Assembly: GCA_964608025.1 (NCBI GenBank)
Contig: CAZSLO010000007.1
Location: 14,825 to 78,824, forward strand
From: an uncultured Dehalococcoidia bacterium
GTDB lineage: Bacteria; Chloroflexota; Dehalococcoidia; Lucifugimonadales; CAJWER01
Length of the DNA stretch: 64,000 nt
Direction of reading: 5' to 3'
Every line of letters begins with the position of its first letter. Positions within the stretch are counted from its first letter, which is position 1. Shown piece by piece: positions 649 through 64,000 of this stretch. The notes under the pieces are model-generated. The model made no database searches, was not told where the DNA came from, and worked only from the letters and a program-made list of their open reading frames with translations. A program made the position numbers and the translations under genes.

Positions 649-654
649 GATAAC

Positions 655-9258: not shown

Positions 9259-9287
9259 ACAGGATCAATTATCTAGAAGGGGAAAAA

Positions 9288-17319: not shown

Positions 17320-17320
17320 T

Positions 17321-35909: not shown

Positions 35910-36395
35910 ATGAATTCAGAAGTCCAGATGTACTGGAACTATATCTCGGAATCCATAGAACGTCTTCTGAAAACCCTAGACAACATGAGTGAGGAACAAA
36001 TCAATGTGCGGCTTACCAACTCAGCAAACAGTCTATTTGTTTTAGGTGTTCACACTTTGGGAAACGTAGAAGAGAATTGCCTCGAGGTCTTGTGCGGTCA
36101 GGAAGTAGGGCGTAACCGGGATGCGGAGTTTTTGGATAGAGGCACTCGTGATTCAGTTACCAATCTATGGAAAGATCTGCAAGACCCATTAATCATGGCA
36201 CTTGACACCCTAACTCCAGAATCACTAGATAAGATTTACGACCATCCCCGCCGGGTAGGCTGTAGCGGACGGGAGATACTTTTGTTGACTTCTAGGCACG
36301 CCGCAGAACACATGGGACAGGCTGAAATCACAAAAGACTTATTGCTCGCACAAAAAATCAACCTTGGTCCGGGTCCAATTGTTACTGAGCAATAA
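35910..36395 (+). CDS. DinB-family four-helix-bundle protein
   Basis: 161 aa. Spaced His residues (GVHTLGN ... SRHAAEHMGQ) are typical of DinB/YfiT metal sites. Confidence 0.7.
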   Translation: MNSEVQMYWNYISESIERLLKTLDNMSEEQINVRLTNSANSLFVLGVHTLGNVEENCLEVLCGQEVGRNRDAEFLDRGTRDSVTNLWKDLQDPLIMALDTLTPESLDKIYDHPRRVGCSGREILLLTSRHAAEHMGQAEITKDLLLAQKINLGPGPIVTEQ

Positions 36396-36404: not shown

Positions 36405-37760
36405 ATGTTAAACGCCGGTACATTTGCCTTAAATATCACCCCTGACCGCCCCCTCTACCTTCAAGGCTATGGGAATCGAACACACCCCTCAACGGGTAAT
36501 TTGGATCCACTGGAAGCCCGAGTAATCGTATTCGACGACGGCACTACACAGGCAGCAATTATATCAGTGGATCTGATTGGACTTGATGCCACATCGGTAA
36601 CTCGAATTCGTAAGGCAGCGGCATTAGCCAGTCCCGTTCCCGAGGAAAATGTGATGGTTGTCTGCTCACACACCCACTCAGGCCCAGCTGTGCAAACCCT
36701 TGGTGATTCTCCAGTCGACAAGGCGTACATCCACTGGCTTGAACAAGCACTTGGAAGTGCTGTCGGAGAAGCTTCGAATTCAATGGTGCCGGTGACCCTT
36801 GCAGTAGGAGAAGGCTCTGTCAAATTCAACGTGAACAGGAGGCTACGCCGATCAGACGGTTCAGTAGGGGGACCCAATCCATTTGGAGCCGTCGACCACC
36901 GGGTCCGCGTATTGCGACTTGACCCAGCATCTGTACCTTCGGATGCCGGAGGCCTCGGTAATACAAATCTACCGAAAGTAGATCCAGTGGCTATCTTATT
37001 CTCTTTCGCTTGCCACCCCACGGTTCTAATGGGCAGCAATTACAGATACAGTAGTGACTACCCGGGTTCTGCCAGGCGTTTCATAGAAACTGCATATGGT
37101 GGGAAAGGTTTCATAGCCACCTTCCTACCGGGATGTTTCGGCAATATTCGACCTCACCTGGTGACACCCGACGGTGCCTTCAGATCCGGTACGGACCATG
37201 AGCTTACAGTCCTCGGACGTATACTTGGAACTGAGGTTGTCCAGGTTGCAGAGGGTTTGATCGGAGACCCTGTCGATGACATAGCCATGGGAAGTCGCAA
37301 AATTAGCCTGCCATATTCCCACGTACCCAGCGAGACTGAGCTGATGGCAGTGCCACCAGATGATAAACGCCGTCGCTGGTGGGCCGATAATCTTCTAGAC
37401 GAAATCAAGAGGAACGGACACCTTCGTGATCATGATACAGGGGAAGTTACCGTACTCCGAATCGGTAGCCATTGGATCGCTACAACGCCTGGAGAAACAC
37501 TGATTGAGATCGGATGGTCAATTGAAAGCGGTCTTGCAGAACTTGGTATCGCTAAACCTGCAGATGGAGACATGACATTAGCGCTGGGATACTCCAATGG
37601 AAACTCCGGTTACTTGTGTACCAGTTCTGCTATCCAAGAGGGTGGTTATGAGCCAGCCAAAGCTTATTTTTACTACCTGCATCCAGGACCCTTTGCGCCA
37701 GAGATAGAACAAATTCTCACGAGCACTGTCCTGGATCTTGCGAAAGGGTTAACCAATTGA
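36405..37760 (+). CDS. Neutral/alkaline ceramidase-like hydrolase
   Basis: LQGYGNR...L.ARVIVFDDG...ISVDLIG...NVMVVCSHTHSGP reproduces the neutral-ceramidase N-terminal zinc-site block (..SATHTHSGP..). Confidence 0.65.
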   Translation: MLNAGTFALNITPDRPLYLQGYGNRTHPSTGNLDPLEARVIVFDDGTTQAAIISVDLIGLDATSVTRIRKAAALASPVPEENVMVVCSHTHSGPAVQTLGDSPVDKAYIHWLEQALGSAVGEASNSMVPVTLAVGEGSVKFNVNRRLRRSDGSVGGPNPFGAVDHRVRVLRLDPASVPSDAGGLGNTNLPKVDPVAILFSFACHPTVLMGSNYRYSSDYPGSARRFIETAYGGKGFIATFLPGCFGNIRPHLVTPDGAFRSGTDHELTVLGRILGTEVVQVAEGLIGDPVDDIAMGSRKISLPYSHVPSETELMAVPPDDKRRRWWADNLLDEIKRNGHLRDHDTGEVTVLRIGSHWIATTPGETLIEIGWSIESGLAELGIAKPADGDMTLALGYSNGNSGYLCTSSAIQEGGYEPAKAYFYYLHPGPFAPEIEQILTSTVLDLAKGLTN

Positions 37761-39760
37761 ATATCCCAAGGAACGAGATCGATTCTTCACTGGAAATTCT
37801 GCTCCGCTACGAAAATAAAATGGAACCTCACTTGCAAGCTAGTCCAGCTTTACTTATAGACCTGGCTGACGAAAATAATTCCCCTTGGAAACAGTTTCTT
37901 TTATCAAATGACGGTTTAGCGATAACAATTGAACAGGCCCTGAAAATATCGAGACAAGAAGCTGTGACACCTCTGAAAACCATAGCTTCTACAAAAGTCC
38001 TAGTCGAAAAATTCGAATCCTCCTTGCAATCCAATTCCATATTGGAACTCCAAGCCTATGTGGGGTCCCGGTCATATATACCTGCTTACGTCAGATCTAG
38101 ATCGGATATTAAGGCTACTACTGGGGAAATAGACACTTCTCTCGCAATCACAGCAATAGCCAAGGAATGGCATCATTTAGGCACAGAAAATGCATTCAAG
38201 GACTGGCCACATGGGATAGAGCAACACTGGTATGAATTTCTTATCAATGGCGGAATTTCAGCGGAATCTGCGAGGTGCGTGCCGAACCAAATAAGGGATG
38301 CCGTGACTAGCCTCGTGGATTACCATGCATCCCAGATGTACGCACAACCTGTGCCAGAAGCTGATGTTATAGAACGATACAAATTCGTTTTCACTGCTCC
38401 CGATATAAAGACAGCGCTCAAGACTGTACTCGATACCTATGCGATTCGGCTTCGCATAGATCCTGAGCAGATAGAGCCATTTTTACGAAACCTGTCGCCA
38501 AAAGAAATACTGGAACGTTTCCGGAAGATAAGAGACTGGATGGGAACTGTCTACATATACGACATGGTGATAACGACTAAGCTGGCAGAGTACCTTTCAC
38601 AACCCGGTGACTTTGATCCTCTTCTAACAGAGATCGATAGGCTGTCTAAAGAGACAACAAAAGGGAATTTCCGTCCGGACAATCCCCTACAACGAGACAT
38701 TGAATTCCGTCGATTTCTAAATGAATACACAAAACATAACGCCGTAAACAAGAGATTGCCTTACCTAAACGAACCGAGCCGGGCACTATACGGGAAGTTC
38801 GAGCAACTTCAATTGCTACCTCCACAAGAGGATGAAAATCCTACGCTATCAGCTGAACATAGACATGAAGCCAAGCGTGTGGCCTACGAGGCAAATGAAC
38901 TACTATCCTTTCTAAAACGAATGCGTGAATGTACAGATAGAACCATCGTTGTCGTGGGCAACGATCGGTATGGACGACAATGGATTGTAGAACCGTTGGA
39001 AGATTTTCTCGATGATGGTTTCGTACTCAGGTACGATCGTTCACCATCGCATATGTCCACCCCGCTGGACGTCGGAAGGTCTAGACAAAGTGAGATTAAT
39101 CTCGATGATAGAGGGCCCTGGACATCGGATATCTTCCCACGTGAGTTTGTGCGATGGCTTGGAAAAGTCATGCCCCACGTGGTTATCGCAGATACAATGA
39201 GCCCCAACAAGAATAGTGAAGGGCTAATGCGAATACCGAGATCTAACCACTCTTATGCGAACTGGTTTATCGCATTCAATGATGTCAGAACAGATGGCAA
39301 CTTCCAGTCATTCGCCAACAATACATTTCTCCCCAAGAACCACTTAGAGGAAGTTGTTAAATGGCATGAGTACGTTGGACTACGCCGCCAGCTACTAGAC
39401 TGGATCGACCGTGGTGAGACCTACAGAATGGCGACCTGGTCACCTGAACCTACCGAAATGGTTAAATTCGGCGAGAGTGTAGTCCCATACATAGAACCAA
39501 AATTAACTGGCGACCGACCAATGGTAGTATTCGCAAACCCAGTCTACTACAACCCTGAGAACCTTCCAGAAGAAATCTCTGACACAAACGCATATTATTT
39601 TGACGGTCCCGAGCGTATAGTCCAAGAAGAAATTCTACTTGGTTTCGGGAATCACGGCTTCGAGACCAGATTGAAGGGCACTACTACAGCGCAATTCGTT
39701 AGTGCTGTCCAGGGCGAGATCACGACACAAATATCCAAGAGTTTTCACCAAAAGGGTTGA
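37757..39760 (+). CDS. Large hypothetical protein (667 aa), no family recognised
   Basis: Long uninterrupted ORF with no signal peptide or TM helix. The TTG start overlaps the ceramidase-like stop (TTGA); an alternative start is the Met at MEPHLQ. The C-terminal half alternates hydrophobic strand-like runs (TIVVVGND, HVVIADTM, MVVFANP). Confidence 0.6.
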   Translation: MNIPRNEIDSSLEILLRYENKMEPHLQASPALLIDLADENNSPWKQFLLSNDGLAITIEQALKISRQEAVTPLKTIASTKVLVEKFESSLQSNSILELQAYVGSRSYIPAYVRSRSDIKATTGEIDTSLAITAIAKEWHHLGTENAFKDWPHGIEQHWYEFLINGGISAESARCVPNQIRDAVTSLVDYHASQMYAQPVPEADVIERYKFVFTAPDIKTALKTVLDTYAIRLRIDPEQIEPFLRNLSPKEILERFRKIRDWMGTVYIYDMVITTKLAEYLSQPGDFDPLLTEIDRLSKETTKGNFRPDNPLQRDIEFRRFLNEYTKHNAVNKRLPYLNEPSRALYGKFEQLQLLPPQEDENPTLSAEHRHEAKRVAYEANELLSFLKRMRECTDRTIVVVGNDRYGRQWIVEPLEDFLDDGFVLRYDRSPSHMSTPLDVGRSRQSEINLDDRGPWTSDIFPREFVRWLGKVMPHVVIADTMSPNKNSEGLMRIPRSNHSYANWFIAFNDVRTDGNFQSFANNTFLPKNHLEEVVKWHEYVGLRRQLLDWIDRGETYRMATWSPEPTEMVKFGESVVPYIEPKLTGDRPMVVFANPVYYNPENLPEEISDTNAYYFDGPERIVQEEILLGFGNHGFETRLKGTTTAQFVSAVQGEITTQISKSFHQKG

Positions 39761-39815
39761 CTAAGCAAAGAACCTAGGCTATAAGAGTCTCTTATTACGT
39801 AAGGTTATAAATTCC

Positions 39816-40841
39816 ATGGCCACCTACATTGCACGTAGACTTTTCCTAGCTTTCTTCACCTTTTGGGTAATATCAGTTGCGTCCTTCGTTATTATTGAAC
39901 TGCCCGAAGGTGACACAATTGACCGCATGTTCGATCGGACTACCCGCACGCACTCGGAGGCAATCGCCATAGAGATGCTTGCGGAGCTACGTCTCCAACT
40001 AGGCCTCGATCAACCGAAACACGTCAGATACAGCAAGTGGATGTGGGAACTTCTTCAAGGCAATTTAGGCCAGACCATGGTGCCATACGGTGGGTTTGGC
40101 AATCAGCGTCCTGTAAAGGAAGTTATTGGAGATCGACTATTCACCACAATCGCCTTAACTGGTTTTACCATACTGGTCACCTGGACGTTCGCGATCCCTG
40201 TTGGAATATATTCTGCAGTACGGCAACACTCTGTAGGAGACTATATTTTCACTTTCGTAGGCTTTACCGGCCTGGCAGTACCAGACTTCCTTCTTGGCCT
40301 AGTTCTAATGTACATCGCCTTCGCCTATTTTGATCAGAGTGTGGGAGGACTCTTCTCAGCAGACTATGCGGGTTCAGATTGGTTTGAAGGTACATTCAAT
40401 TGGGCAAAGTTATCCGACATGATCAACCACCTGTGGATTCCTGCTGTGGTACTGGGCACCTCGGGTACTGCTAGTCTTATCCGAATCATGCGTAACAATC
40501 TGCTGGATGAGCTTGGTAAGCCATACGTCATCACAGCCAGAGCAAAGGGTTCGGTATCGTGGAAAGTTATCCTCAAATACCCAGTTCGAGTCGCGATTAA
40601 CCCTATGGTTAGCACGATTGGTTACCTGCTCCCTTCCCTTGTAGGTGGCAGCGTTATCGTCTCTGTCGTACTCAGCCTACCAACCCTAGGGCCAGTTCTA
40701 CTCGAGGCTATCACCCAAGAAGACACTTATACAGCAGGACCTATCATACTAATGCTAGGCGCACTAACCGTCATAGGGACACTTATATCCGACATATTAC
40801 TGGCTGTCGTAGATCCAAGAATAAAGTACGTCCAATCGTAG
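39816..40841 (+). CDS. ABC peptide/nickel-type permease (DppB/OppB family), paralogue 1
   Basis: N-terminal YIARRL....F helix, the binding-protein-dependent transport EAA-type loop (ARAKG.S...ILKYPVR.A) and a C-terminal DILLAVVDPRIKY. Confidence 0.9.
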   Translation: MATYIARRLFLAFFTFWVISVASFVIIELPEGDTIDRMFDRTTRTHSEAIAIEMLAELRLQLGLDQPKHVRYSKWMWELLQGNLGQTMVPYGGFGNQRPVKEVIGDRLFTTIALTGFTILVTWTFAIPVGIYSAVRQHSVGDYIFTFVGFTGLAVPDFLLGLVLMYIAFAYFDQSVGGLFSADYAGSDWFEGTFNWAKLSDMINHLWIPAVVLGTSGTASLIRIMRNNLLDELGKPYVITARAKGSVSWKVILKYPVRVAINPMVSTIGYLLPSLVGGSVIVSVVLSLPTLGPVLLEAITQEDTYTAGPIILMLGALTVIGTLISDILLAVVDPRIKYVQS

Positions 40842-40865
40842 AATACTAACTTGATTACTTATATC

Positions 40866-41148
40866 GTGCAGCGCATTGTCATGGCCTTCATGACGGTCAT
40901 GGCAATATCAGTCATAGCCTTCATAATCATCGAACTGCCCTAATATGACTCCGTCGCGAGAGCATGGATCAGTATATGACCGTGGGTTCTACCCAACACA
41001 ATCCCGAAATTGTGGCCCATTGGAGAGCATATTTCGGTATAGACAGACCACAGCACATACATTATTGGCAGGATTTATAGTCTTGATAACTGGTGTCCTG
41101 ACAGTCGTCGGTACACTAGTATCAGATATACTCCTAACTAGATCGTAA
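40866..41148 (+). pseudogene. Decayed remnant of a further DppB-type permease paralogue
   Basis: Three fragments are present in different frames and separated by stops. They are an N-terminal helix (VQRIVMAFMTVMAISVIAFIIIELP-stop), a piece matching YLGLDQPQYVRYLKW (YFGIDRPQHIHYW), and the C-terminal helix (LAGFIVLITGVLTVVGTLVSDILL). About 250 central codons are missing. Confidence 0.75.
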
Positions 41149-41241
41149 ATACACCAATTCCGAAAAATTGTTCGCACAATAAGTACGGTATGTACTGCCC
41201 CTAGCTTGGTTTTGGTATGATCCAAGGTGCAATAATTTATC

Positions 41242-44200
41242 TCACTTCCAATCCCTTGCTGTTGGCAAAGGATGAGTAATTGGGATACTTTCTATATATT
41301 GAGCGACCACATTAAATGTGCCTTCTTTGCGTGATACGAAACCTTGTATCTTCAGCACAGGATTCTTAATAACGGCCTGAAAAAGCTCGAAGACTTTTGG
41401 CCATACCACCAGTGATATATGGCCAAATTCATCCTCGAGTGTTATGAATACTGCTTTAGAGCTTGGATGCTGTCTCCGAATCACCAGTCCAGCTACTGTT
41501 ACCTTTGCACCATTTTCTAAGCCAAGTATATCTTGACTCGATACCACATCTGGCAAGTCTTCACGCAAATATGTCATAAAATGGTTTGTGGGATGGATAC
41601 CCATCGTGCGGTACTCATTTAACATAATTTCCCAGTCGGTAATCAATGGAAGCTGTCCCATATCTTGTTCGACTGGGAACCCTAATGTCTTTTGAGCACC
41701 ATCCGGCTGATATAGAAGTCCAACTTCCCATAGAGCCGTACGTCGGTCTGAAACCATCGAGTCGAAAGCTCCAGCTGTGACCAAATTCTCAACATCATCT
41801 CGGTGGAGTCCACTACGATTCATCGTATCTGAAAGGCTATTGAAGTTCCCTCCCCTATCTCTTTCTTGAATTATTTCACCTATTTTGGATTCACCCAGAC
41901 CATCCACTTCCATAAACCCAAGTCTGAAAGTTTCATCGTCCACGATTGTGCATTTGGCTATACTATGGTTTATATCCGGATTTAATACTTGGATGCCATG
42001 ACGATTGGCATCCTCCTTAAGCGTCTCAAGATTGTAGAACCCCATCGGCTGTTGATTAAAAATCGCAACGTAAAACTCAAGTGGATAATGATATTTGAGC
42101 CACGACATCTGGTAAGCCGTAATTCCAAAAGCATAGGCATGTGATTCTGGAAACATATACTGCCCAGAGAATTTTCCGAATACCTTCCTCGCCACATCTT
42201 CTGATACACCATTGCCAGAAGCTCCATCTCTAAATTTTTCCCAGTATTTTTTAAGTACGCCGTGGTTGTTCTTACGTCCAAAGGCTCTTCGTAAATTATC
42301 ACCATCTTTATAAGTTAATCCTGCAACTTCTACCGCCAGTTCGTTGACTTGATCCTGGTAGAGAATTATGCCCAGAGTGCGTTCCAATGCTTTACGCTCT
42401 CTAGGATGATCATAATCCCACTCCATTTTCTTGCGATAACGCTCGATAAACTGGCTGACTCCATGATTGATCCCAACTCCCGGTCGAACAGCAGCAACTT
42501 CATAGGCCATCTCCGTAAAACTATTGGGTTTTAGTCGCACAACTGTCTGCATCTGGGCTGGTGACTCAATCTGAAATATACCTATTGTGTCGGCCTTGTG
42601 AATCGAGTCATATACATTTTGATCATCACTTATCATTGACAGGTCGATGAATTTACCCGTTCTCTCTTCGACCAACTCCAAGGTCTCGTGCATCTGTGAT
42701 AGAGCACCAAGACCCAAGAAATCTATTTTCACGAAGCCAGCATCCGCAATACTGTCTTTGTCCCACTGGCAAATGTATCTATTATCCAATCCTCCAGGCT
42801 GGATAGGAACCATGTCCATAATCGGCTTATCACTAATGACCATCCCGCTTGAATGTTGCATAAGATATTTCGGGAACCCTTGCAATTCAGACACCATCCC
42901 AATTAGCGTATCCCAAACCGGTACGTCAATCTTATGCCTGAAATCCGGAAGAGTTTCCATTTCAGATTTCAAGCTATTGCCATGGCTACTATCTACTCTC
43001 TTAGCCAACTTATCGACATCCTCTAAGGGAATGCCCAGTGCCTTTCCAAGATCCCGTATACAACCCTTCATTTTATATGTGGCAATCGCACCAGTGAGTA
43101 CAGATCTTTCCCATCCATACTTATCATGGATGCGCTTTATGGTTTCTTCACGTATATCACGTGGAAAGTCGATATCTATATCAGGGATATTTCCAATACT
43201 CTCGTTTAGGAATCGATCAAGGGCAAGTTCATATTTAAGAGGATCTATGTGCGAGAGACCAATTAAATATCCTACTAGCATTGATACTGACGAACCGCGT
43301 CCACGTCCGGGAGGTCGTTCTTCCAAGGGTATCTCTGGATCACTATGCCCAAGATTTATCATCACTTCACGAGCTATCTTTATCACCTCGTAGTAGATCA
43401 AGAAGAATCCGGACAGTCCATGCATTTTGATCAGTCGAAATTCCTCATCAAGCCTTTCTCTCACATCAGGGCGCATCAACCCATATTTGCGAACAGCTGC
43501 ATCTTCACAAATCTGTTCTAAATAACTCTGAGCCGTGTGTTCAGGTGGAAGATCGCTGTATCCTGGAAAGCTGTAACCAAGCTTCGTTTCTAAATTAAAT
43601 GTGCACCGGTTAGCTATCAAAAATGTATTGTTAACTGCTTCAGGTAGGTCCTGAAATAAAACATCCATTTCCTCTCTAGATCTCAAGTAGAAATTTGAGT
43701 TAGCACGTCGTTCCCGATGTGTTTCTTCGAGTGTCTTATTGTGCTTAATGGCTACTAGTAGATCCTGAAGCCTGTGTCGCTCAGGAAGGTGATAGTGGAC
43801 GTTATTGGTCGCTACAACAGGAACACCAAGAGTACGTGCTAGCTGTACTAAACGTTTATTTCGTAGCGTATCTCCATATATTAGGTTTTGCTGTAACTCA
43901 ACAAATACACTTGCAGTTCCAAACCAATCTATGTAATTGCTAATCTCTGCTTCAGCATCTTTAGTCCTTGCCTCGCTCACAAGGCGAGGCACACTGCCCT
44001 TAGCACAGCCCGTTAGCAATATAAGTCCTTCTGAATACTCCTTCAGTAATACTGGATTAAGCTTGGGATCCATCCTCTCCCCATCTAAACCCATCCGAGA
44101 TGCTGTCATCAAATTACAGAGGTTCGAGTATCCTTGGCGAGTCTCTGCCAAGAGTGTCAAATGGGATCCATTTGAGAGGGTTATCTCGGCGCCTGTGATC

Positions 44201-44385
44201 GGATGGATATGGATGCTATTGGCAAGTCGCGAGAATTCCATTGCCCCACTCAGGTTATCGTGATCAGTGAGTGCCAATGCTGGATATCCAAGTTCATCAG
44301 CACGAATAAGAAGCTCTTCCAGAGATGAGGCACCCTCTTGGAATGAATAGTTACTGTGGCAGTGAAGTTCAACGTAGGGCATCAT
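41242..44385 (-). CDS. dnaE2: Error-prone DNA polymerase III alpha-type subunit DnaE2 (ImuC)
   Basis: 1047 aa. PHP domain start YVELHCHSNYSFQEGAS, a Pol III alpha core (PDIDIDF), and an OB-fold C-terminus. It lies directly downstream of imuB, as in mutasome cassettes. Confidence 0.9.
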   Translation of the reverse strand: MMPYVELHCHSNYSFQEGASSLEELLIRADELGYPALALTDHDNLSGAMEFSRLANSIHIHPITGAEITLSNGSHLTLLAETRQGYSNLCNLMTASRMGLDGERMDPKLNPVLLKEYSEGLILLTGCAKGSVPRLVSEARTKDAEAEISNYIDWFGTASVFVELQQNLIYGDTLRNKRLVQLARTLGVPVVATNNVHYHLPERHRLQDLLVAIKHNKTLEETHRERRANSNFYLRSREEMDVLFQDLPEAVNNTFLIANRCTFNLETKLGYSFPGYSDLPPEHTAQSYLEQICEDAAVRKYGLMRPDVRERLDEEFRLIKMHGLSGFFLIYYEVIKIAREVMINLGHSDPEIPLEERPPGRGRGSSVSMLVGYLIGLSHIDPLKYELALDRFLNESIGNIPDIDIDFPRDIREETIKRIHDKYGWERSVLTGAIATYKMKGCIRDLGKALGIPLEDVDKLAKRVDSSHGNSLKSEMETLPDFRHKIDVPVWDTLIGMVSELQGFPKYLMQHSSGMVISDKPIMDMVPIQPGGLDNRYICQWDKDSIADAGFVKIDFLGLGALSQMHETLELVEERTGKFIDLSMISDDQNVYDSIHKADTIGIFQIESPAQMQTVVRLKPNSFTEMAYEVAAVRPGVGINHGVSQFIERYRKKMEWDYDHPRERKALERTLGIILYQDQVNELAVEVAGLTYKDGDNLRRAFGRKNNHGVLKKYWEKFRDGASGNGVSEDVARKVFGKFSGQYMFPESHAYAFGITAYQMSWLKYHYPLEFYVAIFNQQPMGFYNLETLKEDANRHGIQVLNPDINHSIAKCTIVDDETFRLGFMEVDGLGESKIGEIIQERDRGGNFNSLSDTMNRSGLHRDDVENLVTAGAFDSMVSDRRTALWEVGLLYQPDGAQKTLGFPVEQDMGQLPLITDWEIMLNEYRTMGIHPTNHFMTYLREDLPDVVSSQDILGLENGAKVTVAGLVIRRQHPSSKAVFITLEDEFGHISLVVWPKVFELFQAVIKNPVLKIQGFVSRKEGTFNVVAQYIESIPITHPLPTARDWK

Positions 44386-44687
44386 AGGCCAAGTAGTGGT
44401 CTATGATGCTGTTTATACCAGGTCCCATTAGCCAAGTCTCGGAATATAACAATCAGTGTTTCGTTATCAATACATACCTGGTAATAGCGCCTGGCAATTG
44501 AATTGGGTCTCCACCATTCATCAACTATTTCCCACATATCTTGTATCGAGATCACACTAAACCTTTGTCCACGTGAAATAATCGCGGTGGGCCTGTGTTC
44601 TCTAGTCTCTTCCACTTGAATCAGTTCTGGCTTATTTAAGGGGCGAATTCGACCAAGGCCTGTCTTCTTTCCGGTATTCTCGACCAC
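44382..44687 (-). CDS. ImuB C-terminal-domain-like small protein (separate ORF in the -1 frame relative to imuB)
   Basis: DEWWRPNSIARRYYQVCIDNETLIVIFRDLANGTWY resembles the (PE)WW...RDY(F/Y).V....G..LW.FR..... W block I recall at the C-terminus of full-length ImuB proteins. It overlaps imuB by 52 nt and forms an ATGA overlap with dnaE2. Confidence 0.5.
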   Translation of the reverse strand: MVENTGKKTGLGRIRPLNKPELIQVEETREHRPTAIISRGQRFSVISIQDMWEIVDEWWRPNSIARRYYQVCIDNETLIVIFRDLANGTWYKQHHRPLLGL

Positions 44688-45817
44688 GGCTCTACATCCA
44701 CCACCTTGTAAACTGGGGGTCTCATTCTTAAGCGTGTCCTGAGCTGATGCATAACATCACGAAGTTGCTCCTGTTTGCGTACTTCATCAAGAAGATTCGA
44801 TTGAATTCCAGTTTCTCCTGAGGTTTCGCAAACCGTAATACGTATATCCTCTAAGGGCCCTGCTATCTCGATCCCTTGCAGAGCATTTTTCAATACCAAG
44901 AACGCCGATTTACCTTTGTTAACGGGATTTTTAAAAACCAGTTTCTTCGACCATGGTGTCCGATTAAGGATATTCGACTGAATAAAAATAGACTGGACAT
45001 ATTTACCGGAGAGGCTTGGATGGGCAAATAACCGACTCAAAAGCAATTCTATTGCAGGAAATATATTGAAAATTGAGGTAGTAGGAACAGGAAAAGTGAG
45101 TAAGTCAGTCACAATATCAGGTCGCTTTGAGGGAACCACCGGATCGTTATCAAATCCATTCGACAATTCCCAGGCCACCCGGCCCTGTGGGCCGAATTGA
45201 GCCTGCATGGACCCAATCGATAGAGTTGCTATCTGGCCCATGGTGTGAAGGCCGAAGTCATGTAAACGTGATCGTTTCTCCCATGACAAAGGTAATAGAT
45301 CGATTGGGATTCTCTTAAGAAAGCTAGCTACATCATCCGGAACTAAGATTGTTCTTCCAGGCTTACTGGTAACAGCCGCAATGTAGGCTGGGTACTTCGA
45401 TTTTGCTAGTCCAAGACGAGCACCAAAACGAGATGGTACTACTCCAAGCAAGGTTTCTATGATTTCCTGATCGCTACCGTAAATACCTTCAGTTCCTTCC
45501 ATATCTAAAAAAACGCAACCTAGTTTCCCATTCTCGACAACTGGGCTCTTTTCGAAAAGAGCCTTCAGGAAGTTATCGAATATATTTTGATAGTAAACCT
45601 CGTCCGATTCGATAAAAGTCGCATTTTTACAACGAGACAGTGCCTCTTGCAGAGACATTCCGACCGAAACACCCTTGACTTCCGAAGAAAAATCGAGGAT
45701 CGAAGAAATCCCTTTAATCCGGGAGGTAACCAGAATCGGCTTGCCTTGCAGGCTCGGATTCCTATGTATCTCCGCCTTCACCGGCAAATGCGTGATCAAC
45801 ACACAAACGACCTTCAT
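44636..45817 (-). CDS. imuB: ImuB, catalytically inactive Y-family polymerase-like mutasome subunit (lacks the usual C-terminal module)
   Basis: Y-family fold (LDMEGTEGIYG, little-finger region), but the N-terminal catalytic DxD is replaced (VCVLITHLP), as in ImuB. It lies upstream of dnaE2. Its 393 aa is shorter than typical ImuB. Confidence 0.8.
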   Translation of the reverse strand: MKVVCVLITHLPVKAEIHRNPSLQGKPILVTSRIKGISSILDFSSEVKGVSVGMSLQEALSRCKNATFIESDEVYYQNIFDNFLKALFEKSPVVENGKLGCVFLDMEGTEGIYGSDQEIIETLLGVVPSRFGARLGLAKSKYPAYIAAVTSKPGRTILVPDDVASFLKRIPIDLLPLSWEKRSRLHDFGLHTMGQIATLSIGSMQAQFGPQGRVAWELSNGFDNDPVVPSKRPDIVTDLLTFPVPTTSIFNIFPAIELLLSRLFAHPSLSGKYVQSIFIQSNILNRTPWSKKLVFKNPVNKGKSAFLVLKNALQGIEIAGPLEDIRITVCETSGETGIQSNLLDEVRKQEQLRDVMHQLRTRLRMRPPVYKVVDVEPWSRIPERRQALVEFAP

Positions 45818-45843
45818 CAGGTATAGGATGTCCTTTCTTTATT

Positions 45844-45857
45844 AGTACATTAGTTCT
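45844..45857. promoter_or_regulatory. Candidate LexA (SOS) box upstream of imuB
   Basis: AGTAC-ATTA-GTTCT (minus strand AGAAC-TAAT-GTACT) has one mismatch to the Gram-positive-type palindrome AGAAC-N4-GTTCT. It lies 27-40 nt upstream of the imuB ATG. Confidence 0.45.
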
Positions 45858-46113
45858 ATTTATGGTAATCTCTCTTACTTTGATTTTCAAGGGTATTGAT
45901 AGGAATTCCGAGCTGGTTTTTCCTTAGTCTAGGTTCAACCTATGGCTAACAGAATAGCTTCGTCAAAAAAGGTAAATCAGTATGCACACTCGCAGTTTTG
46001 GTCGTATTGTATGAAGTAATATCTAACAATACAGATCTAGACACTGCTTCAATCCACATAAGTAATAACGATTCGAACAGGGAAAATAATTACAGGACAC
46101 CCGTAGGAAAAGA

Positions 46114-48945
46114 GTGATTCGAACCATAAATCCACAACGCCTTATACGATCAACCTACTTGGGGATTAACTTATTAGCCCTCTGTATATCCACACTACTC
46201 GGATGTGACATGCTGACCACAACAGAAGAAACCGCTAGTTTATGCGTGGAACTAAACTCAAAACCTGTCTCGAATAAATTATCAGTAAAGATATCTCCGG
46301 TTAATAAACTACTCCTACTGGGTACATCTATAAACCTGCAAGCGAAGGCAGGGCCAGCGCCGGGAAGCTGCAGTTGGTCAAGCAGCGACAACACTGTCCT
46401 ACTCATCACCGAGTCATTTTCGCAAAACGACACTTCAGTCACCAATATCAAAACCAAAGGCATAGGTACTGCGACCATAACTATCAAGTACACAACGAAA
46501 CTGGGGGAGATCATTACAGACTCGATTGAGTTGACTGTGATCGATCTTGATATTGATGTACTGGGAATCCCTGATGCCGACGAGGAATCCGTGGGAGCAT
46601 TTTTACCCTTCAGCGGAGGTACCGACTCCATAAGAGAACTCACATTTAGGGCAATTCTAGGCAATGTCGTAGGCAAAATTACCCTGGACTCCAAATCTGG
46701 CGCTGACAAGATCCGGCTCTGGAGCAATGCGTCTAAAACTAAGCGCATTCAAACACCAACTCAATTTAATCCTACGGAATTACCTAGATCTCTGTTTGTA
46801 GAAGGCATAGAGCCTACCGTCGGCTCACGCGAGATCGAACTAAGCCTTACGATCAAGTCCGATTATGGACAAATATCCGATTCAATAAAGCTGTCCGTCG
46901 TACGCATCGATCTAGACGTCGACAGTGATCGTGATGGAATCGTGCATGACGATAGCGATGAGTCTGGAGAAAATGAGTGGACAGAAACCCAGGGTGCAAT
47001 GTTCATGGTCAATTACGACAACGATGATGGTGACCAAGACGGGCTTCCAGACGCAATATACTTCGATGTAAATGGCCTCCCTATATCTGAGGATTTCATC
47101 GTGAACGGCCCAAATGACACCAAGGATCTCACGGAGGTCGTCGTCCGGATTCACGGTATCGATACTAACGATCTTAAGGCTGTCAACTTACACGTACCGA
47201 AACTTGACCACATCAAGGGAATTCACATGTTCGATGCTATAGAGCAGGGAAGAATCTCTTTCTGGGGTGGTCCGAACGAAAGTAACTTAGCAACTGATCT
47301 CACAAAATACCTCGTAGCCGGAGGAAAAACTACGTTCGGGATCGAGGGTCTTTTCTTCAGATACACTGCGCCTGAAGCGTATGGTGGTATCTTTGAGGAT
47401 GGTTATTCCGGCGAATTAGAACTTGAACTAACTGCCACAGGACCCAAAGGTACATCATTAGGTTCCGACCAAGTTTTGCTGCGCGTTGCACCATTCATAA
47501 TTCTCCCTAACACTCAGGACGCAGTCGAAATATGGGGCCGTGATTTGAATCTCGAAGACTTTAGATCAACACTTCAGGACATCGTTGCACTTCACCATTA
47601 CCAATCCGGGGAAGACCAATGGACCCAAGACCACATAGAGATAGGGTACACTCAGGCGCCAGGCAGACCAAAGACACACATAGTGCTCCAGCTACCAAGA
47701 GCACGGCTAGCCAACGAAGGTATAGAAGACGCCACCCCACAGTGGCCTAGGGAACATTTACTTGGACGTAATCAAGGCCTATTCCGGTTCTGGAATTTCC
47801 ATATGACCAAGGGACTCAATGCAGGAGATTACGGTGGCAACATAGAACTAATGCCACCTACCCAAGAATGGCCGCTCGGACGCATCCTGGTAGGAAATAC
47901 TATAAGTCCACCTCTACTAAAATTTCTCCAGGACCAACGAGTACAAGATCCATTCCAGATTAGTACCGAATGGCTGCGTGTAGGACATGTCGACGAAGTA
48001 CTGGCTTTCGTGCCCGATGAAAATCAGTGGAGCCTCGTGATCGCAGATCCTATTCAGGCCAAAAGTCTTCTGGCCCCTCTTGAAGAAGATGCCGTTTTCT
48101 TCAAGAGGGGCCAAGTAAGCCGCGGATATTATTTCTCCGCATCACCCAAGAGTTCCAAAACAACACTTGTTGACTCTGCAAATACCAACTTCAGGCACTC
48201 CCGGTGGGAATTCGCTAAGTATATACGCATCTACGACGGGACAGGTGCTGGTCAAGTAGCAAGAATAAGCTCTAAAGACAGCGGGATACTGACCATAGAC
48301 AAGGTATGGCAAACACCTACAAAAGCTGCTGATTTAGGTTACAAAGGTCCAGCAGAGTCGACTGCATCTATTAATGGACAACTTGATTCCATTAGCATCC
48401 CACCTAGTGGTCAATGGTTCAACATTCCAGACGATACTAGTCGATATCTACTCATAGAAGATACTCTATTCTGGATCGATGGCATTGGACAAGAGGTCCC
48501 TGCTGTTATCAGTGTCCACGAAATACTTAACGACTCTCTCCTATGGGATTTGAACGATATAGCAGCGTACAAGATAAAAGATATCGTGGACCGGATAGAC
48601 AGCATCTCGGGGGATGACATCAACGTAATACGCGTTCCAGATTTCTTTATGGGATCATTCTCTGATAAAGGCGATGCGATTGAAGACGCATTCACATTCG
48701 CACCGGCCCTAGCAAATCTTCAAGTAGCCGGGGGGTGGGTTTTTTCCTCCGAGAGGTACGGCCCACAAAACCTAGACGGCAACGACGTTCTTCAACATGG
48801 TTTCGCAACCTTGATATCGAGTTCAGTCCATACTATCGATGGCTGGGATAGGTACCACAGATGGACAGGTAACGTACACTGTTTCACTTACGTAAAGAGA
48901 GAGCCTTTTGAATTCAACTGGTGGTCTCATATTTCTGAAAGATAA
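46114..48945 (+). CDS. Exported protein-arginine deiminase (PAD)-like lipoprotein with N-terminal Ig-like (Big_2) domain
   Basis: GTG start after AGGAAAAGA. Signal peptide plus lipobox (ISTLLGC). A Big_2-like domain follows (GTSINLQA...SWSSSDNTVL...GIGTATITI). The PAD middle-domain-like region has DVDSDRDG, MVNYDNDDGDQDG and RVAPFIILPNTQ. The PAD catalytic domain has WTQDHIEIGY, EWPLGRILVG, WLRVGHVDEVLAFVP and GNVHCFTYVKREPFEFNWW. Confidence 0.75.
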   Translation: MIRTINPQRLIRSTYLGINLLALCISTLLGCDMLTTTEETASLCVELNSKPVSNKLSVKISPVNKLLLLGTSINLQAKAGPAPGSCSWSSSDNTVLLITESFSQNDTSVTNIKTKGIGTATITIKYTTKLGEIITDSIELTVIDLDIDVLGIPDADEESVGAFLPFSGGTDSIRELTFRAILGNVVGKITLDSKSGADKIRLWSNASKTKRIQTPTQFNPTELPRSLFVEGIEPTVGSREIELSLTIKSDYGQISDSIKLSVVRIDLDVDSDRDGIVHDDSDESGENEWTETQGAMFMVNYDNDDGDQDGLPDAIYFDVNGLPISEDFIVNGPNDTKDLTEVVVRIHGIDTNDLKAVNLHVPKLDHIKGIHMFDAIEQGRISFWGGPNESNLATDLTKYLVAGGKTTFGIEGLFFRYTAPEAYGGIFEDGYSGELELELTATGPKGTSLGSDQVLLRVAPFIILPNTQDAVEIWGRDLNLEDFRSTLQDIVALHHYQSGEDQWTQDHIEIGYTQAPGRPKTHIVLQLPRARLANEGIEDATPQWPREHLLGRNQGLFRFWNFHMTKGLNAGDYGGNIELMPPTQEWPLGRILVGNTISPPLLKFLQDQRVQDPFQISTEWLRVGHVDEVLAFVPDENQWSLVIADPIQAKSLLAPLEEDAVFFKRGQVSRGYYFSASPKSSKTTLVDSANTNFRHSRWEFAKYIRIYDGTGAGQVARISSKDSGILTIDKVWQTPTKAADLGYKGPAESTASINGQLDSISIPPSGQWFNIPDDTSRYLLIEDTLFWIDGIGQEVPAVISVHEILNDSLLWDLNDIAAYKIKDIVDRIDSISGDDINVIRVPDFFMGSFSDKGDAIEDAFTFAPALANLQVAGGWVFSSERYGPQNLDGNDVLQHGFATLISSSVHTIDGWDRYHRWTGNVHCFTYVKREPFEFNWWSHISER

Positions 48946-49020
48946 CTAGATCAACCTTGACGAGGATACCAGTCGTCAATATAGTGCAGGCAATTCGATC
49001 TCTATATCTACTATAAGGGT

Positions 49021-50028
49021 ATGCACATGGTTCCTTACATAGTTCGTCGCATCTTACTATCGATGTTCACTATCTGGGCGATCTCTCTGCTGGCTTTCGT
49101 CATCATCGAATTACCACCTGGAGACCAGGTTGATCGTTTCAAGGAGATCACAGAAAGTAGACGGGAAGTGCCAGACCCGGAAAAGATAGAAGCCCTCCGG
49201 AGCTACTTGGGATTAGACCAGCCACAATACGTCCGATACCTCAAATGGATGGTTAACCTGGCACAGGGTGACCTGGGACTATCATTCCAGTATCGACGAG
49301 AAGTCGACATGCCTGTAAAACAGCTGCTAGAAAACCGCCTGTGGCTAACAGTCGCACTCACCGGATTCACGGTACTGGTCACCTGGACCTTCGCGATACC
49401 GGTTGGTATTTACTCCGCTGTCCGCCAACACTCGGTTGGCGACTATGTCTTTACGTTCCTCGGATTCACCGGTATCGCTGTGCCAGATTTCCTTCTAGGA
49501 CTGGTATTAATGTATGTAGCATTCGCATATTTCGATATGAGTGTCGGTGGACTCAATTCATCCGATTATGCAAACTCCCCCTGGAATTCAGCACGACTCC
49601 GAGATCTGCTAAATCATCTTTGGATACCCGCCATCGTACTCGGTACATCTGGAACTGCTGGCCTGATCAGGGTGATGCGTAACAACCTGCTTGACGAGCT
49701 AGGAAAACCCTACGTGGCCACTGCCAGGGCAAAGGGATTAACATCTGTCAAAGCTATATTGAAATACCCGGTAAGAGTGGCAATCAATCCACTCATCAGC
49801 ACTGTAGGGTACCTGTTGCCAGCACTGGTAAGCGGAAGCATTATCGTTTCTGTAGTACTTAGCCTGCCCACACTGGGACCGCTGTTGCTCGAGGCAATCC
49901 TAACTGAGGACGTTTTCCTTGCAGGATTCATCATCCTGATGGCAGGTGTGCTGACGGTAGTTGGCACACTGATCTCGGATATCTTACTTGCAGTGGTAGA
50001 CCCAAGGATTAAATACACGGCCGAATAG
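49021..50028 (+). CDS. ABC peptide/nickel-type permease (DppB/OppB family), paralogue 2
   Basis: Collinear with paralogue 1 and shares long identical runs (LVTWTFAIPVGIYSAVRQHSVGDY, AVPDFLLGLVLMY, RVMRNNLLDELGKPYV). Ends DILLAVVDPRIKY. Confidence 0.9.
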   Translation: MHMVPYIVRRILLSMFTIWAISLLAFVIIELPPGDQVDRFKEITESRREVPDPEKIEALRSYLGLDQPQYVRYLKWMVNLAQGDLGLSFQYRREVDMPVKQLLENRLWLTVALTGFTVLVTWTFAIPVGIYSAVRQHSVGDYVFTFLGFTGIAVPDFLLGLVLMYVAFAYFDMSVGGLNSSDYANSPWNSARLRDLLNHLWIPAIVLGTSGTAGLIRVMRNNLLDELGKPYVATARAKGLTSVKAILKYPVRVAINPLISTVGYLLPALVSGSIIVSVVLSLPTLGPLLLEAILTEDVFLAGFIILMAGVLTVVGTLISDILLAVVDPRIKYTAE

Positions 50029-50123: not shown

Positions 50124-50654
50124 GTGCATCATTCCTTCACTCCAGCCAGTGTTTCAAAACAAACATGGGAACGTCAGATGCAAATTCCTCTACCTCTTAA
50201 CGATGATACTGACTACGGATTTTGCTTCGCCTGCGGCCCACTTAATCCCTCAGGGCTCCGTCTTCGATTCAAACATGATAGGGATCAAATCGTTACTGAA
50301 TATACGCCCAACCAAGAACATCAGGGCTTCCCTGGTTATCTGCACGGAGGTGTAATATCGGCTCTGCTAGATGAGGTTATGAGCCGGGTATCTTTACTTG
50401 ACAATATATGGACAATGACAGCACGCATAGATGTCCGCTACCGGCAACCCATACCGACAAGTCACTCAATCAAAGCGTTTGCGAAGCGGCGAAACAAACG
50501 GCTAAATATCTTCGAAACTATCGGCTGGATAGAACTACCTGATGGCTCAGTCGCGGCAGAGGCAATCGGAACATTCATACCCGTTAAAAAAGATGATCTT
50601 GCCAAGATGGGTGAAGGTTATCCAATACTAGCCAAAAAGTGGATGGTCAGCTAA
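50124..50654 (+). CDS. PaaI/YbgC-type hotdog-fold thioesterase
   Basis: CFACGP.NP.GL...F and GY.HGG..SALLDE are typical of PaaI-family thioesterases. The start may instead be the Met at 50178 (MQIPLPL). Confidence 0.7.
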   Translation: MHHSFTPASVSKQTWERQMQIPLPLNDDTDYGFCFACGPLNPSGLRLRFKHDRDQIVTEYTPNQEHQGFPGYLHGGVISALLDEVMSRVSLLDNIWTMTARIDVRYRQPIPTSHSIKAFAKRRNKRLNIFETIGWIELPDGSVAAEAIGTFIPVKKDDLAKMGEGYPILAKKWMVS

Positions 50655-56038: not shown

Positions 56039-56039
56039 A

Positions 56040-59006: not shown

Positions 59007-59232
59007 TCCTGTTTGTTGTAGTGTCCCGTTCTGCTAAAAACCATTTACGACATCCAAGGCCGTGGTACCACCACTCCTGCTGATCACCAGCAACATTGCC
59101 CCTAGCGTAAAAGTATTTCATCCAAATTCCAGTTTCAGCATCCGGCGCCGGACGCTGAACGACCTCGCCGCCGAATCTAAATTCGTATACGTTTCGATCA
59201 CCACAATTAGGACAATTAACTAGAAAAGACAT
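58969..59232 (-). CDS. mgdB: N-methylglutamate dehydrogenase subunit B (sarcosine oxidase delta-subunit-like)
   Basis: 87 aa. CPNCG.R...EF..GGE zinc-ribbon start typical of SoxD. Confidence 0.8.
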   Translation of the reverse strand: MSFLVNCPNCGDRNVYEFRFGGEVVQRPAPDAETGIWMKYFYARGNVAGDQQEWWYHGLGCRKWFLAERDTTTNRIDSTMWPGEADS

Positions 59233-59238
59233 GGCTTC

Positions 59239-60597: not shown

Positions 60598-60705
60598 TTT
60601 GGAGGTTCCTCCATATAGTTTCGGCCGACCGAAAAACTCACCCTACCAGAATATAACGTACAAACCACCAAGATTTTACCCCAAAAGATCTTCCAGTTGA
60701 GAGCA

Positions 60706-63589: not shown

Positions 63590-63611
63590 TGACAAAACCT
63601 CATATTGAGAA

Positions 63612-63900: not shown

Positions 63901-64000
63901 TCACTGACGCGTAAATTTGATCCTTGGGTCTACAGCCGCAAGCAAAACGTCGGATATCAACGTACCAATCGCAGTTAACGTGCCCAACATTAAGATTATG
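63901..64000 (-). CDS. ABC peptide/nickel-type permease (DppB family), 3' end only (gene continues beyond the window)
   Basis: The minus-strand frame open to the window edge reads IILMLGTLTAIGTLISDVLLAAVDPRIKFTRQ-stop. This is the same C-terminal helix and DPRIKY tail as paralogues 1 and 2. It is too short to appear in the ORF track. Confidence 0.7.
   Translation of the reverse strand, partial: IILMLGTLTAIGTLISDVLLAAVDPRIKFTRQ

Follow-up and report, generated by a model that had tools for sequence, protein, structure and literature searches.

A conserved Dehalococcoidia locus carries lone DppB-type permease paralogues around a PAD-like lipoprotein gene

The 64-kb stretch of uncultured Dehalococcoidia DNA analyzed here (the window) was shown to hold a copy of a Dehalococcoidia locus that is conserved and has been inherited vertically. 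The ancestral gene order of this cluster is amidohydrolase, ceramidase-like gene, P1, P2, PAD-like lipoprotein, P3 (and P3'), and thioesterase, in which P1, P2, and P3 denote paralogue groups within a clade of DppB/OppB-type ABC permease subunits that is restricted to Dehalococcoidia. The same cluster was found at 13 further loci, 14 when the window is counted. These loci represent at least five lineages, whose GC contents range from 38 to 66%, and the gene order is repeated in L004-L008, L083-85, L092-94, L109, and L002. SDR, baeRF-like, and RDD genes are common to the upstream regions, placing the cluster at the same chromosomal locus across relatives. The initial annotation had described one arrangement, a large unusual protein followed by a lone permease, as occurring twice within 10 kb. 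This is literally correct but misleading, since the two apparent modules are the halves of a single ancestral cluster that has been interrupted. The unit at the locus is instead an array of one to four B-type paralogues flanking the PAD gene, and such lone, conserved B-type subunits beside a PAD in these marine bacteria suggest an unusual way of assembling a peptide ABC importer. The features are listed in Table 1; the coordinates of the 667-aa, P1, PAD, and P3 ORFs were confirmed, as were the spacings of 55 nt between the 667-aa gene and P1 and 75 nt between the PAD gene and P3.

Table 1. Positions of the cluster genes and associated features in the window
Feature	Position	Strand	Evidence
Amidohydrolase (Xaa-Pro-dipeptidase-like), first conserved cluster gene	34620..35858	+	PF01979, 1.6e-39
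DinB-superfamily protein	35910..36395	+	PF07609, PF04978, PF12867
Neutral-ceramidase-like amidase, cytoplasmic	36405..37760	+	PF04734, 3e-12
667-aa protein, conserved unnamed family	37757..39760	+	134 homologues
P1, intact DppB/OppB-type permease, 341 aa	39816..40841	+	PF00528 96.9 bits, PF19300
P2 pseudogene	40851..41148	+	tblastn vs L004 P2, 81% identity overall
Translesion-polymerase cassette	41242..45817	-	full DnaE domain set, PF00817, NF004225
PAD-like lipoprotein, 943 aa	46114..48945	+	PF03068 188.7 bits, PF08527
P3, intact DppB/OppB-type permease, 335 aa	49021..50028	+	PF00528 99.6 bits, PF19300
PaaI/4HBT-like hotdog thioesterase, 176 aa, last conserved cluster gene	50124..50654	+	TIGR00369 20.4 bits (below cut-off)
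Further permease of same clade, C-terminal end, gene leaves window	63904..64000	-	tblastn

Remodeling in the window lineage makes the locus resemble two independent pairs of a large protein and a permease: DinB and 667-aa genes lie upstream, P2 is decayed, and the stretch from P2 to the PAD gene holds a Y-family-polymerase/dnaE2 cassette on the opposite strand. The decayed permease copy noted earlier downstream of P1 proved to be a P2 pseudogene, recently inactivated in this lineage. It keeps codons 1 to 72 and 303 to 326, with approximately 230 codons deleted, and has an in-frame stop and a change of frame near codon 38. In tblastn its three pieces were 74%, 83%, and 96% identical to L004 P2; the overall identity was 81%, compared with 53 to 65% for all other paralogue groups. 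Within the cassette are three ORFs, encoding an ImuB-like Y-family polymerase (393 aa), a 101-aa product, and an error-prone DnaE2 (1,047 aa; error-prone DNA polymerase model, 863 bits); no other cluster locus has the cassette between P2 and the PAD gene. The DinB gene occupies its position only in the window; L004-L008 gave no match to it, and in those genomes the amidohydrolase gene either adjoins the ceramidase-like gene or is set apart from it by unmatched sequence alone. Promoter and terminator scans gave results at chance level.

The amidohydrolase lacks a signal peptide, and its best NCBIfam match was a Caulobacter-type Xaa-Pro dipeptidase at 235 bits, under the 500-bit cutoff. Its orthologues (62 to 73% identity) occupy the equivalent position in L004-L008, L083, L092, and L093, a position held in L109 by an Amidohydro_1 gene. 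The ceramidase-like amidase lacks a hydrophobic N terminus, and its orthologues (67 to 68% identity) lie immediately 5' of P1 in L004-L008. The thioesterase assigned earlier downstream of P3 was upheld by a weak hotdog match and by its L083 orthologue, which matches PF03061 (23.2 bits; cutoff, 20.6); a thioesterase ends the cluster in L004-L008, L083, L092, L093, and L109.

The 667-aa protein, whose gene overlaps the 3' end of the ceramidase-like gene by 4 nt, had been called an ORFan; the searches gave 134 homologues, about 674 aa long, with E values down to 5e-204, most of them in unrelated contexts. Pfam and NCBIfam searches returned no match. Its AlphaFold2 model (mean pLDDT of 85) consists of an N-terminal half that is all alpha and a C-terminal alpha/beta domain and matched no PDB fold (best E value of 0.04, TM of ≤0.2). 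The protein has neither a signal peptide nor a transmembrane segment. The gene is missing from the locus in the five closest genomes (L004-L008), one of which has a homologue about 500 kb away, and elsewhere it lies 5' of a permease array only in L002, with an FG-GAP lipoprotein gene intervening. It is not a binding protein: it is cytoplasmic and lacks the fold of one, and the locus does not conserve its gene. Of the recurring two-gene module proposed initially, the pairing of the 667-aa gene with a permease was thus lost, being absent at L004-L008; the neighborhood comparison retained the PAD–permease linkage, in 14 loci of at least five lineages.

P1 and P3 are 69% identical to each other, and both exceeded the gathering scores of PF00528 and PF19300, in agreement with the DppB-type identity first proposed. 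Their scores are under every NCBIfam equivalog cutoff (e.g., 131 to 146 bits for DppB, against 590). The PDB sequence matches of P1 were B-type chains only: Escherichia coli DppB (8z1v) and OppB (8z21) and Mycobacterium tuberculosis OppB (8j5q_B) and DppB (8wd9_B). With these DppBCDF/OppBCDF-type importers (E. coli DppBCDF 8z1v and OppB 8z21, M. tuberculosis OppABCD 8j5q and DppABCD 8wd9), of which they match only the B chains, P1 and P3 share PF00528, the EAA coupling loop, six hydrophobic segments, and the N-terminal domain PF19300, which is B specific. The locus differs in having one to four tandem B-type paralogues instead of genes for DppC/OppC, DppD/F, and a family-5 binding protein. Tblastn of all 64 kb with Devosia DppC, DppD/F, and SBP queries and Pfam scans of 34 of the larger ORFs detected neither a DppC-type permease nor an oligo_HPY-type ATPase nor a family-5 binding protein in the window, in line with the initial annotation, which saw no such gene following either permease. 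Phylogenetically, the B-only clade is monophyletic (bootstrap, 100/100), with bootstraps of 99/100 for P1 and 100/100 each for P2 and P3, and is nested among permeases of canonical SBP-B-C(-D-F) operons; such operons contain all relatives of ≤50% identity and most of those up to 59%. P1 orthologues are 79 to 87% identical, and those of P3, which lie 3' of the PAD gene in L004-L008, are 87 to 89% identical.

Only 13 positions are clade specific, and the flanks of the EAA loop (KPYVVTARAKG...KYPVRVAINP) are conserved in the clade. The six residues following ARAKG are fixed inside each paralogue group and differ between groups. P1 has a W-type loop (ARAKG-SVSWKVIL) and P3 a non-W loop (ARAKG-LTSVKAIL), a distinction that is, as it stands, a sequence pattern; to our knowledge, E. 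coli DppB has no Trp at the W-type position. Arrays with at least two copies contain exactly one W-type copy plus non-W copies, the counter-case being L009, where two W-type copies flank a GGT-like gene. At the same loop positions, variants seen in Dehalococcoidia DppC match the P-[A/L/M]-[K/R] residues of P2 and P3.

We lean, with some reservation, toward the permeases being functional B-type subunits, paired with one another or with themselves, their ATPases and binding proteins being encoded elsewhere. The intact copies would then be the transmembrane subunits of peptide-type ABC importers, docking nucleotide-binding subunits via the conserved EAA loop, and ATPases and family-5 binding proteins would be supplied from elsewhere in the genome. 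ATPases already appear to be encoded elsewhere for canonical operons of the same genomes, as L014, L019, L021, and L073 have SBP-B-C without an ATPase within 10 kb. MsiK of Streptomyces and MsmK of Streptococcus are unlinked, shared ATPases of ABC importers, and their systems resemble these SBP-B-C operons in having transmembrane genes without an ATPase gene. Both membrane subunits and the binding protein are encoded together in the MsiK/MsmK systems; the window locus also lacks the second subunit type and the binding protein. The second membrane subunit would most likely be not DppC but a further B-type paralogue, with P1 (W-type loop) pairing with P2 or P3 (DppC-like loop residues). P1 is the only permease at the locus in one GC-38% lineage (L083-85, L092, L093), so heterodimers would there require a partner elsewhere or a homodimer, with P1 pairing with itself. 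MetNI, ModBC, and Art(QN)2, Type I ABC importers of other families, have homodimeric membrane subunits, and in these one permease gene serves both translocator halves, as the lone P1 would need. Within the Dpp/Opp (PepT) family, no homodimeric member is known to us. The substrates would probably be peptides or amides, acted on outside the cell by the surface PAD-like enzyme and, once imported, by the cytoplasmic amidohydrolase, ceramidase-like amidase, and thioesterase.

A less probable but serious alternative is that these are ordinary B-C heterodimers with scattered genes, each lone B pairing with a DppC encoded elsewhere, perhaps one C shared by interchangeable B paralogues. ABC parts are dispersed in the class (L046 has SBP-C, SBP-C, and SBP-B-C; L074 has SBP-B and SBP-B-C), ATPases are missing from several SBP-B-C operons, and every solved family member matched was a B chain from a B-C system. 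Against this, no DppC lay within 10 kb of any of about 40 clade members examined, the tandem B copies are only 18 to 80 nt apart, the layout expected of co-assembling subunits, and the coupling loops of P2 and P3 carry DppC-like residues.

The PAD-like lipoprotein was also considered as a partner. Its lipobox reads LLGC, and a lipobox is present in every orthologue with a readable N terminus; together with the PAD domain match this bore out its earlier naming as a PAD-like lipoprotein, and it is predicted to be membrane anchored and to face outward. It aligns to residues 132 to 686 of human PAD2 and keeps the QD, GHVDE, and VHC motifs, which we take to provide the catalytic Asp, His/Asp, and Cys, respectively. 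At an E value of ≤1e-20, it yielded only 26 sequence clusters in a collection of 5.8 billion proteins. Cummings et al. (2022, PMC8826395) reported PADI in only 0.76% of bacterial species. Those homologues similarly have PAD_M and catalytic PAD domains with putative catalytic motifs kept; the main text of that paper names no Chloroflexi member, lipoprotein signal, or operon, and the window subfamily differs in being a lipoprotein with about 120 extra residues between catalytic motifs and in its gene linkage to ABC permeases. Every locus found to encode a PAD of ≥49% identity (14/14, window included) links it to a lone DppB-type permease; homologues of ≤46% identity have no permease beside them. 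The link is thus limited to a single PAD subfamily and, for the most part, to one syntenic locus, and inherited synteny could explain part of its conservation.

It is improbable that a large neighbor (the PAD or the 667-aa protein) takes the place of the binding protein and works directly with a single, perhaps homodimeric permease. The PAD does lie on the membrane face where a binding protein would be, adjoins a B copy throughout its subfamily, and stands beside exactly one B in the GC-38% lineage. However, it retains the putative catalytic motifs of an enzyme, has no PF00496 match, and is short or unconserved where it does not align to PAD2, and the 667-aa protein fails on the grounds given above. 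Moreover, there is no PAD near most of the clade permeases (L009-L013, L086-89, L107-108, and the window-end copy), and the clade-specific outer-face changes are common to all members, PAD linked or not.

Least probable is that the permeases are nonfunctional relics of broken dpp/opp operons, a suggestion that stands for the decayed P2 copy only: although that copy is clearly a pseudogene and split or frameshifted copies occur in L002, L005, L007, and L012, where frameshifts in long-read MAGs may be assembly errors, dN/dS is 0.03 to 0.13 across P1, P2, and P3 (P1, 0.06 to 0.13; P3, 0.06 to 0.09), and comparisons with the window gave saturated dS and a dN of 0.07 to 0.10, so that relic status is rejected for the intact permeases. 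All family motifs are retained, and across genomes of 38 to 66% GC the B proteins are more conserved (79 to 89% identity) than the PAD (49 to 64%) and the neighboring enzymes (52 to 73%), P2 being 90% identical between 39%-GC and 66%-GC genomes.

The window also ends in a further permease copy, missed by the initial annotation, that is 72 to 86% identical by tblastn to the last 28 to 32 residues of clade members. The next genes on its strand encode GATase, GXGXG, and glutamate-synthase-like domains.

The two intact permeases of the window, permease 1 and permease 2, are 69% identical, and both matched BPD_transp_1 (PF00528; 96.9 and 99.6 bits against a gathering cutoff of 26.4) and the B-specific N-terminal domain PF19300 (29.9 and 29.6 bits; cutoff, 23.8). 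The OppC_N domain of C subunits (PF12911) was matched by neither in Pfam, and their matches in the PDB were B chains only (E. coli DppB and OppB and M. tuberculosis OppB and DppB). On these matches, both are predicted to be DppB/OppB-type subunits of PepT family ABC importers. They could not be assigned as orthologs of a named permease (E. coli DppB, OppB, NikB, and GsiC or Opp1B to Opp4B), every NCBIfam equivalog score being below its cutoff; the best match was Opp4B, with 216 to 228 bits against 450, and DppB scored 131 to 146 bits against 590.

Coordinates of features in the window and in related loci (L numbers)
Location	Feature	Coordinates	Strand	Content
Window	ABC-2 type system	16270-20570		ATPase and 760-aa ABC-2 permease/ABC_transp_aux (GldG-like) fusion
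Window	667-aa protein	37757-39760	+	ORF
Window	Permease 1 (P1)	39816-40841	+	
Window	Broken permease copy	40851-41148	+	
Window	Polymerase cassette	41242-45817	-	DnaE2 and ImuB-like ORFs
Window	PAD-like lipoprotein (PAD), 943 aa	46114-48945	+	PAD_M and PAD domains
Window	Permease 2 (P3)	49021-50028	+	
Window	N-methylglutamate-pathway-like gene set	54096-63595	-	
Window	Fourth permease copy, cut by window end	63904-64000	-	Found by tblastn
L014-L017	SBP-B-C operon portion	~7500-9950	+	812-aa protein
L014-L017	Second 812-aa copy	~14400-16900	-	
L046	SBP-DppC units	130-12124		
L074	SBP-DppB unit	7878-16106		
L104	Distant PAD homolog region	4302-10214		

The ORF calls bore out the gene coordinates of the initial annotation, with permease 1 starting 55 nt past the 667-aa gene and permease 2 starting 75 nt past the PAD gene, and a broken permease copy does lie directly after permease 1. 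The thioesterase placed after permease 2 was upheld in part: a plus-strand ORF of 176 aa is present there and is PaaI/4HBT-like, but the match of the window protein is weak (TIGR00369, 20.4 bits; cutoff, 36.6), and its L083 ortholog matched PF03061 with 23.2 bits (cutoff, 20.6). The reported lack of transporter partners beside the permeases was likewise confirmed by tblastn of the whole window and by Pfam analysis of 34 of the larger ORFs. A DppC/OppC-type gene was found neither in the window nor less than 10 kb from any clade member (tblastn with Devosia DppC, in agreement with the Pfam neighbor lists), no DppD/DppF-type ATPase (ABC_tran plus oligo_HPY) was found in the window with Devosia DppD/F or adjoining the permeases, and no family-5 substrate-binding protein (SBP; PF00496) was found in the window with the Devosia SBP or in Pfam among the scanned proteins. 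The nearest family-5 SBP gene to a clade locus was unlinked, about 6 kb downstream in L083. The ATPases near the permeases belonged only to an ABC-2 system in the window and to ABC-2 or ABC_membrane exporters at other loci; the genes downstream of the permeases in L004, L006, and L008 and those near L009 and L012 were considered as the missing ATPase partners and rejected on this account. The ABC-2 type system of the window is unrelated to the Dpp-type permeases, and the ORF that follows its fusion gene has a weak DUF4340 match, below the cutoff. Promoter and terminator scans between 34 and 51 kb gave counts at the level of shuffled sequence and were uninformative on cotranscription.

A genome scan with one genome per species identified 79 loci encoding relatives of permease 1, which were mapped by tblastn with DppB, DppC, DppD/F, SBP, and the neighboring genes of the window. 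Relatives of 50% identity or less were all located in SBP-B-C-D-F or SBP-B-C operons, as were most of those up to 59%; the relatives in canonical operons were from Anaerolineae, Caldilineae, Devosia, and other Dehalococcoidia. Relatives of at least 65% identity were from Dehalococcoidia MAGs only, and none had a DppC, a Dpp-type ATPase, or an SBP gene within 10 kb. These close relatives form a single clade (bootstrap, 100/100) with the subgroups P1 (99), P2 (100), and P3 (100), plus others, and this B-only clade is strongly conserved, tandemly amplified, and abundant in ocean metagenomes. The data are best explained by an expansion, specific to Dehalococcoidia, of partnerless B-type subunits that would still be coupled to ATPases and would work, by a putative mechanism, with partners encoded elsewhere. 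The Dpp/Opp-type importers matched among solved structures all have a B-C membrane pair, two ATPases, and an SBP, and to our knowledge the same composition holds for every known importer of this type. The B-only clade would mean either a B-B form of the Dpp/Opp family or importers built from scattered genes. A search of the published literature on orphan permeases, SAR202 ABC paralogs, and PAD in Chloroflexi found nothing relevant.

Gene arrangements at loci of the permease clade (P3', extra P3 copy; B, clade permease)
Locus	GC (%)	Arrangement
L004-L008 (five genomes; same locus as window)	64-66	amidohydrolase, ceramidase-like, P1, P2, PAD, P3, (P3'), thioesterase
L083-L085, L092, L093	38	amidohydrolase, P1, PAD, thioesterase
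L109	39	amidohydrolase, P1, P2, PAD, thioesterase
L002	64	674-aa protein, FG-GAP lipoprotein, four B copies, PAD
L094 (short contig)	64	B, B, PAD
L009, L012		lone B near GGT-like gene
L010		lone B near FG-GAP lipoprotein and transglutaminase-like gene
L107, L108		lone B near PTE and Amidohydro_2 genes
L086-L089		lone B near glycosyltransferase gene and unknown 253-aa gene

The two pairs of a large protein and a lone permease had been read as a possible recurring two-gene module, a reading that comparison of the loci upheld only in part. The loci carrying PAD and permeases have upstream genes in common (SDR, baeRF-like, and RDD) and therefore represent one orthologous chromosomal locus. The broken permease copy of the window, which has a stop and frame change near codon 38 and a deletion of codons 73 to 302, was 81% identical to P2 of L004 and 53 to 65% identical to the other paralog groups (tblastn), identifying it as the P2 ortholog. 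Only in the window is P2 separated from PAD by the Y-family-polymerase/dnaE2 cassette, a DinB gene in the cluster is likewise confined to the window, and the 667-aa gene was found upstream of the array in the window and L002 only. Since these genes are peculiar to the window (apart from the 667-aa gene in L002), the apparent modules are the two ends of a single interrupted cluster. The cassette, which was not at this position in any of 13 related loci, encodes an error-prone DnaE2 of 1,047 aa and a Y-family ImuB-like ORF of 393 aa, the latter overlapping a 101-aa ORF without a family match; together (about 494 aa) these two may be one frameshifted imuB, and no imuA-like gene was evident. Across the syntenic orthologous loci (window, L004 to L008, L083, and L109), the GC content ranged from 38 to 66% (window, 46%), so that a single gene neighborhood differs very widely in composition, and the permeases were still 79 to 90% identical.

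The other reading in the initial annotation, that the permeases are stranded relics, fits the P2 pseudogene only. Among L004 to L008, dN/dS was 0.06 to 0.13 for P1, 0.03 to 0.06 for P2, and 0.06 to 0.09 for P3, and in comparisons with the window, dS was saturated and dN was 0.07 to 0.10. Identity across loci was 79 to 89% for the permeases versus 49 to 64% for PAD, 62 to 73% for the amidohydrolase, and 52 to 69% for the thioesterase, and P2 was 90% identical between a 39%-GC and a 66%-GC genome. Only 13 positions were specific to the clade relative to 65 canonical B sequences, and all family motifs were retained. Low dN/dS, conservation above that of the neighbors, and the intact motifs together argue against decay of the remaining copies.

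The 667-aa protein had been called an ORFan, which is not the case, as 134 homologs of about 674 aa were found, and this family appears to be uncharacterized. No Pfam or NCBIfam model matched it, no signal peptide or transmembrane segment was predicted, and its confident AlphaFold2 model (pLDDT, 85) gave no significant fold match and no SBP structure in the PDB. Without a Pfam match, a signal peptide, or a binding-protein fold match, the idea that it is a hidden family-5 SBP was rejected. Its homologs lie elsewhere in unrelated contexts (L001 and L091); in the L006 genome the gene is about 500 kb from the cluster, and the family also occurs in genomes of about 6 Mb, beside AP_endonuc_2 and BKACE genes (L001). 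Thus, of the conserved adjacency proposed initially, the link of PAD to the permeases is real and kept across loci, whereas that of the 667-aa protein is not. Large proteins upstream of B in other loci were also considered as its relatives and rejected: the 613-aa protein of L009 and the 812-aa protein of L014 to L017 are unrelated to it and to each other. The latter, which lacks a Pfam match, is encoded in canonical SBP-B-C operons of related Dehalococcoidia, between a 941-aa SBP and DppB, and a second copy (71 to 80% identical) lies a few kilobases downstream on the opposite strand.

The 943-aa protein matched the PAD catalytic domain PF03068 with 188.7 bits (cutoff, 25), and its residues 258 to 941 aligned to residues 132 to 686 of human PAD2. 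The motifs WTQDH, GHVDE, and NVHC correspond to QDE, GHVDE, and EVHC of PAD2, and we take their QD, GHVDE, and VHC to be the catalytic residues (Asp, His/Asp, and Cys). The protein is therefore predicted to be a protein-arginine deiminase-like enzyme of the pentein fold. A lipoprotein signal ending in LLGC is present at its N terminus, and all PAD orthologs with a readable N terminus have a lipobox. About 120 extra residues separate the GHVDE and VHC motifs in the window protein and its orthologs (L002, L004 to L008, L083, L092 to L094, and L109), and an N-terminal extension of about 210 aa is found in the window, L083, and L002 and absent from L004 to L008. Despite the export signal, PAD was rejected as a hidden family-5 SBP because residues 258 to 941 align to PAD2, and its extension was rejected as part of an SBP because the L004 to L008 orthologs lack it; neither PAD nor the 667-aa protein is a disguised binding protein. 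The subfamily is small (26 clusters at an E value of 1e-20 or less). At every locus where PAD was at least 49% identical, a gene of the permease clade directly adjoined it; homologs of 27 to 46% identity had no such gene alongside. A more distant homolog (L104; 39% identity) follows two isochorismatase-family genes near a lone, divergently oriented family-5 SBP gene, with no permease there. Chloroflexi are not mentioned in the main text of a survey of bacterial PADI (PMC8826395).

The EAA-type coupling loop is conserved across the clade as KPYV(V/I)TARAKG...KYPVRVAINP, with invariant flanks, and the six residues following ARAKG are fixed within each paralog group and different between groups: LPEWKV in canonical B, xxSW(R/K)L in P1 (VxKWRL in the GC-38/39% lineages), V(H/P)PAK(V/I) in P2, and LRP(L/M)RA in P3 (LTSVKA in the window). 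Every PAD-linked array with at least two copies had exactly one W-type copy (P1), the rest being non-W. B and C permease subunits are homologous to each other, and the P2 and P3 residues, as aligned, resemble the variants of Dehalococcoidia DppC at the same positions (such as GPLRI, SQLRI, and SQGRI). The partnerless B-type subunits probably pair among themselves, and from the loop residues we infer that P1 would stand in as the "B" subunit and either P2 or P3 as the "C" subunit, which would also account for the window bearing the loss of P2 with P1 and P3 kept. Counter to this pairing, P1 is alone at the locus in the GC-38% lineage, and L009 has two W-type copies. That the permeases stay linked to a PAD-like lipoprotein, which is rare in bacteria, suggests that arginine in dissolved peptides is modified outside the cell as part of nitrogen or carbon scavenging, which we put forward as a testable hypothesis. 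A more direct role, in which the translocator of an importer without DppC would be made up of B paralogs with differentiated coupling loops (P1 with P2/P3, or just P1) and PAD would work directly with it, modifying arginine-containing peptides and passing them on, seems to us quite improbable; if true, enzyme-coupled uptake would replace, or stand beside, the classical SBP.

The preferred reading, of B-type subunits with partners encoded elsewhere, can be set beside other transporters of the class. In the same genomes, SBP-B-C operons occur without ATPase genes within 10 kb (L014, L019, L021, and L073), and other Dehalococcoidia have SBP-C and SBP-B units without a second permease (L046 and L074), so that dispersed ABC parts are a feature of the class. 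In L046, two tandem SBP-DppC units without DppB precede a full SBP-B-C set, and L074 has an SBP-DppB unit without DppC; incomplete transporter units are thus not confined to the clade studied here. If the genes are scattered, predicting transporters and their substrates from operons would be unreliable in uncultured marine Dehalococcoidia.

The other clade members are single, among hydrolase and other enzyme genes, and the same habit is seen just outside the clade, where a lone B gene accompanies S51 peptidase and BNR genes (L033) or PhyH and methylmalonyl-CoA mutase genes (L051). The partnerless copy at the window end lies 308 nt upstream of a minus-strand set encoding GATase-like, GXGXG, and glutamate-synthase-like subunits, sarcosine-oxidase-like alpha, gamma, and beta subunits, and a type III glutamine-synthetase-like protein (TIGR03105; 553 bits, above the cutoff), a set that we take to resemble the N-methylglutamate pathway for methylamine use.
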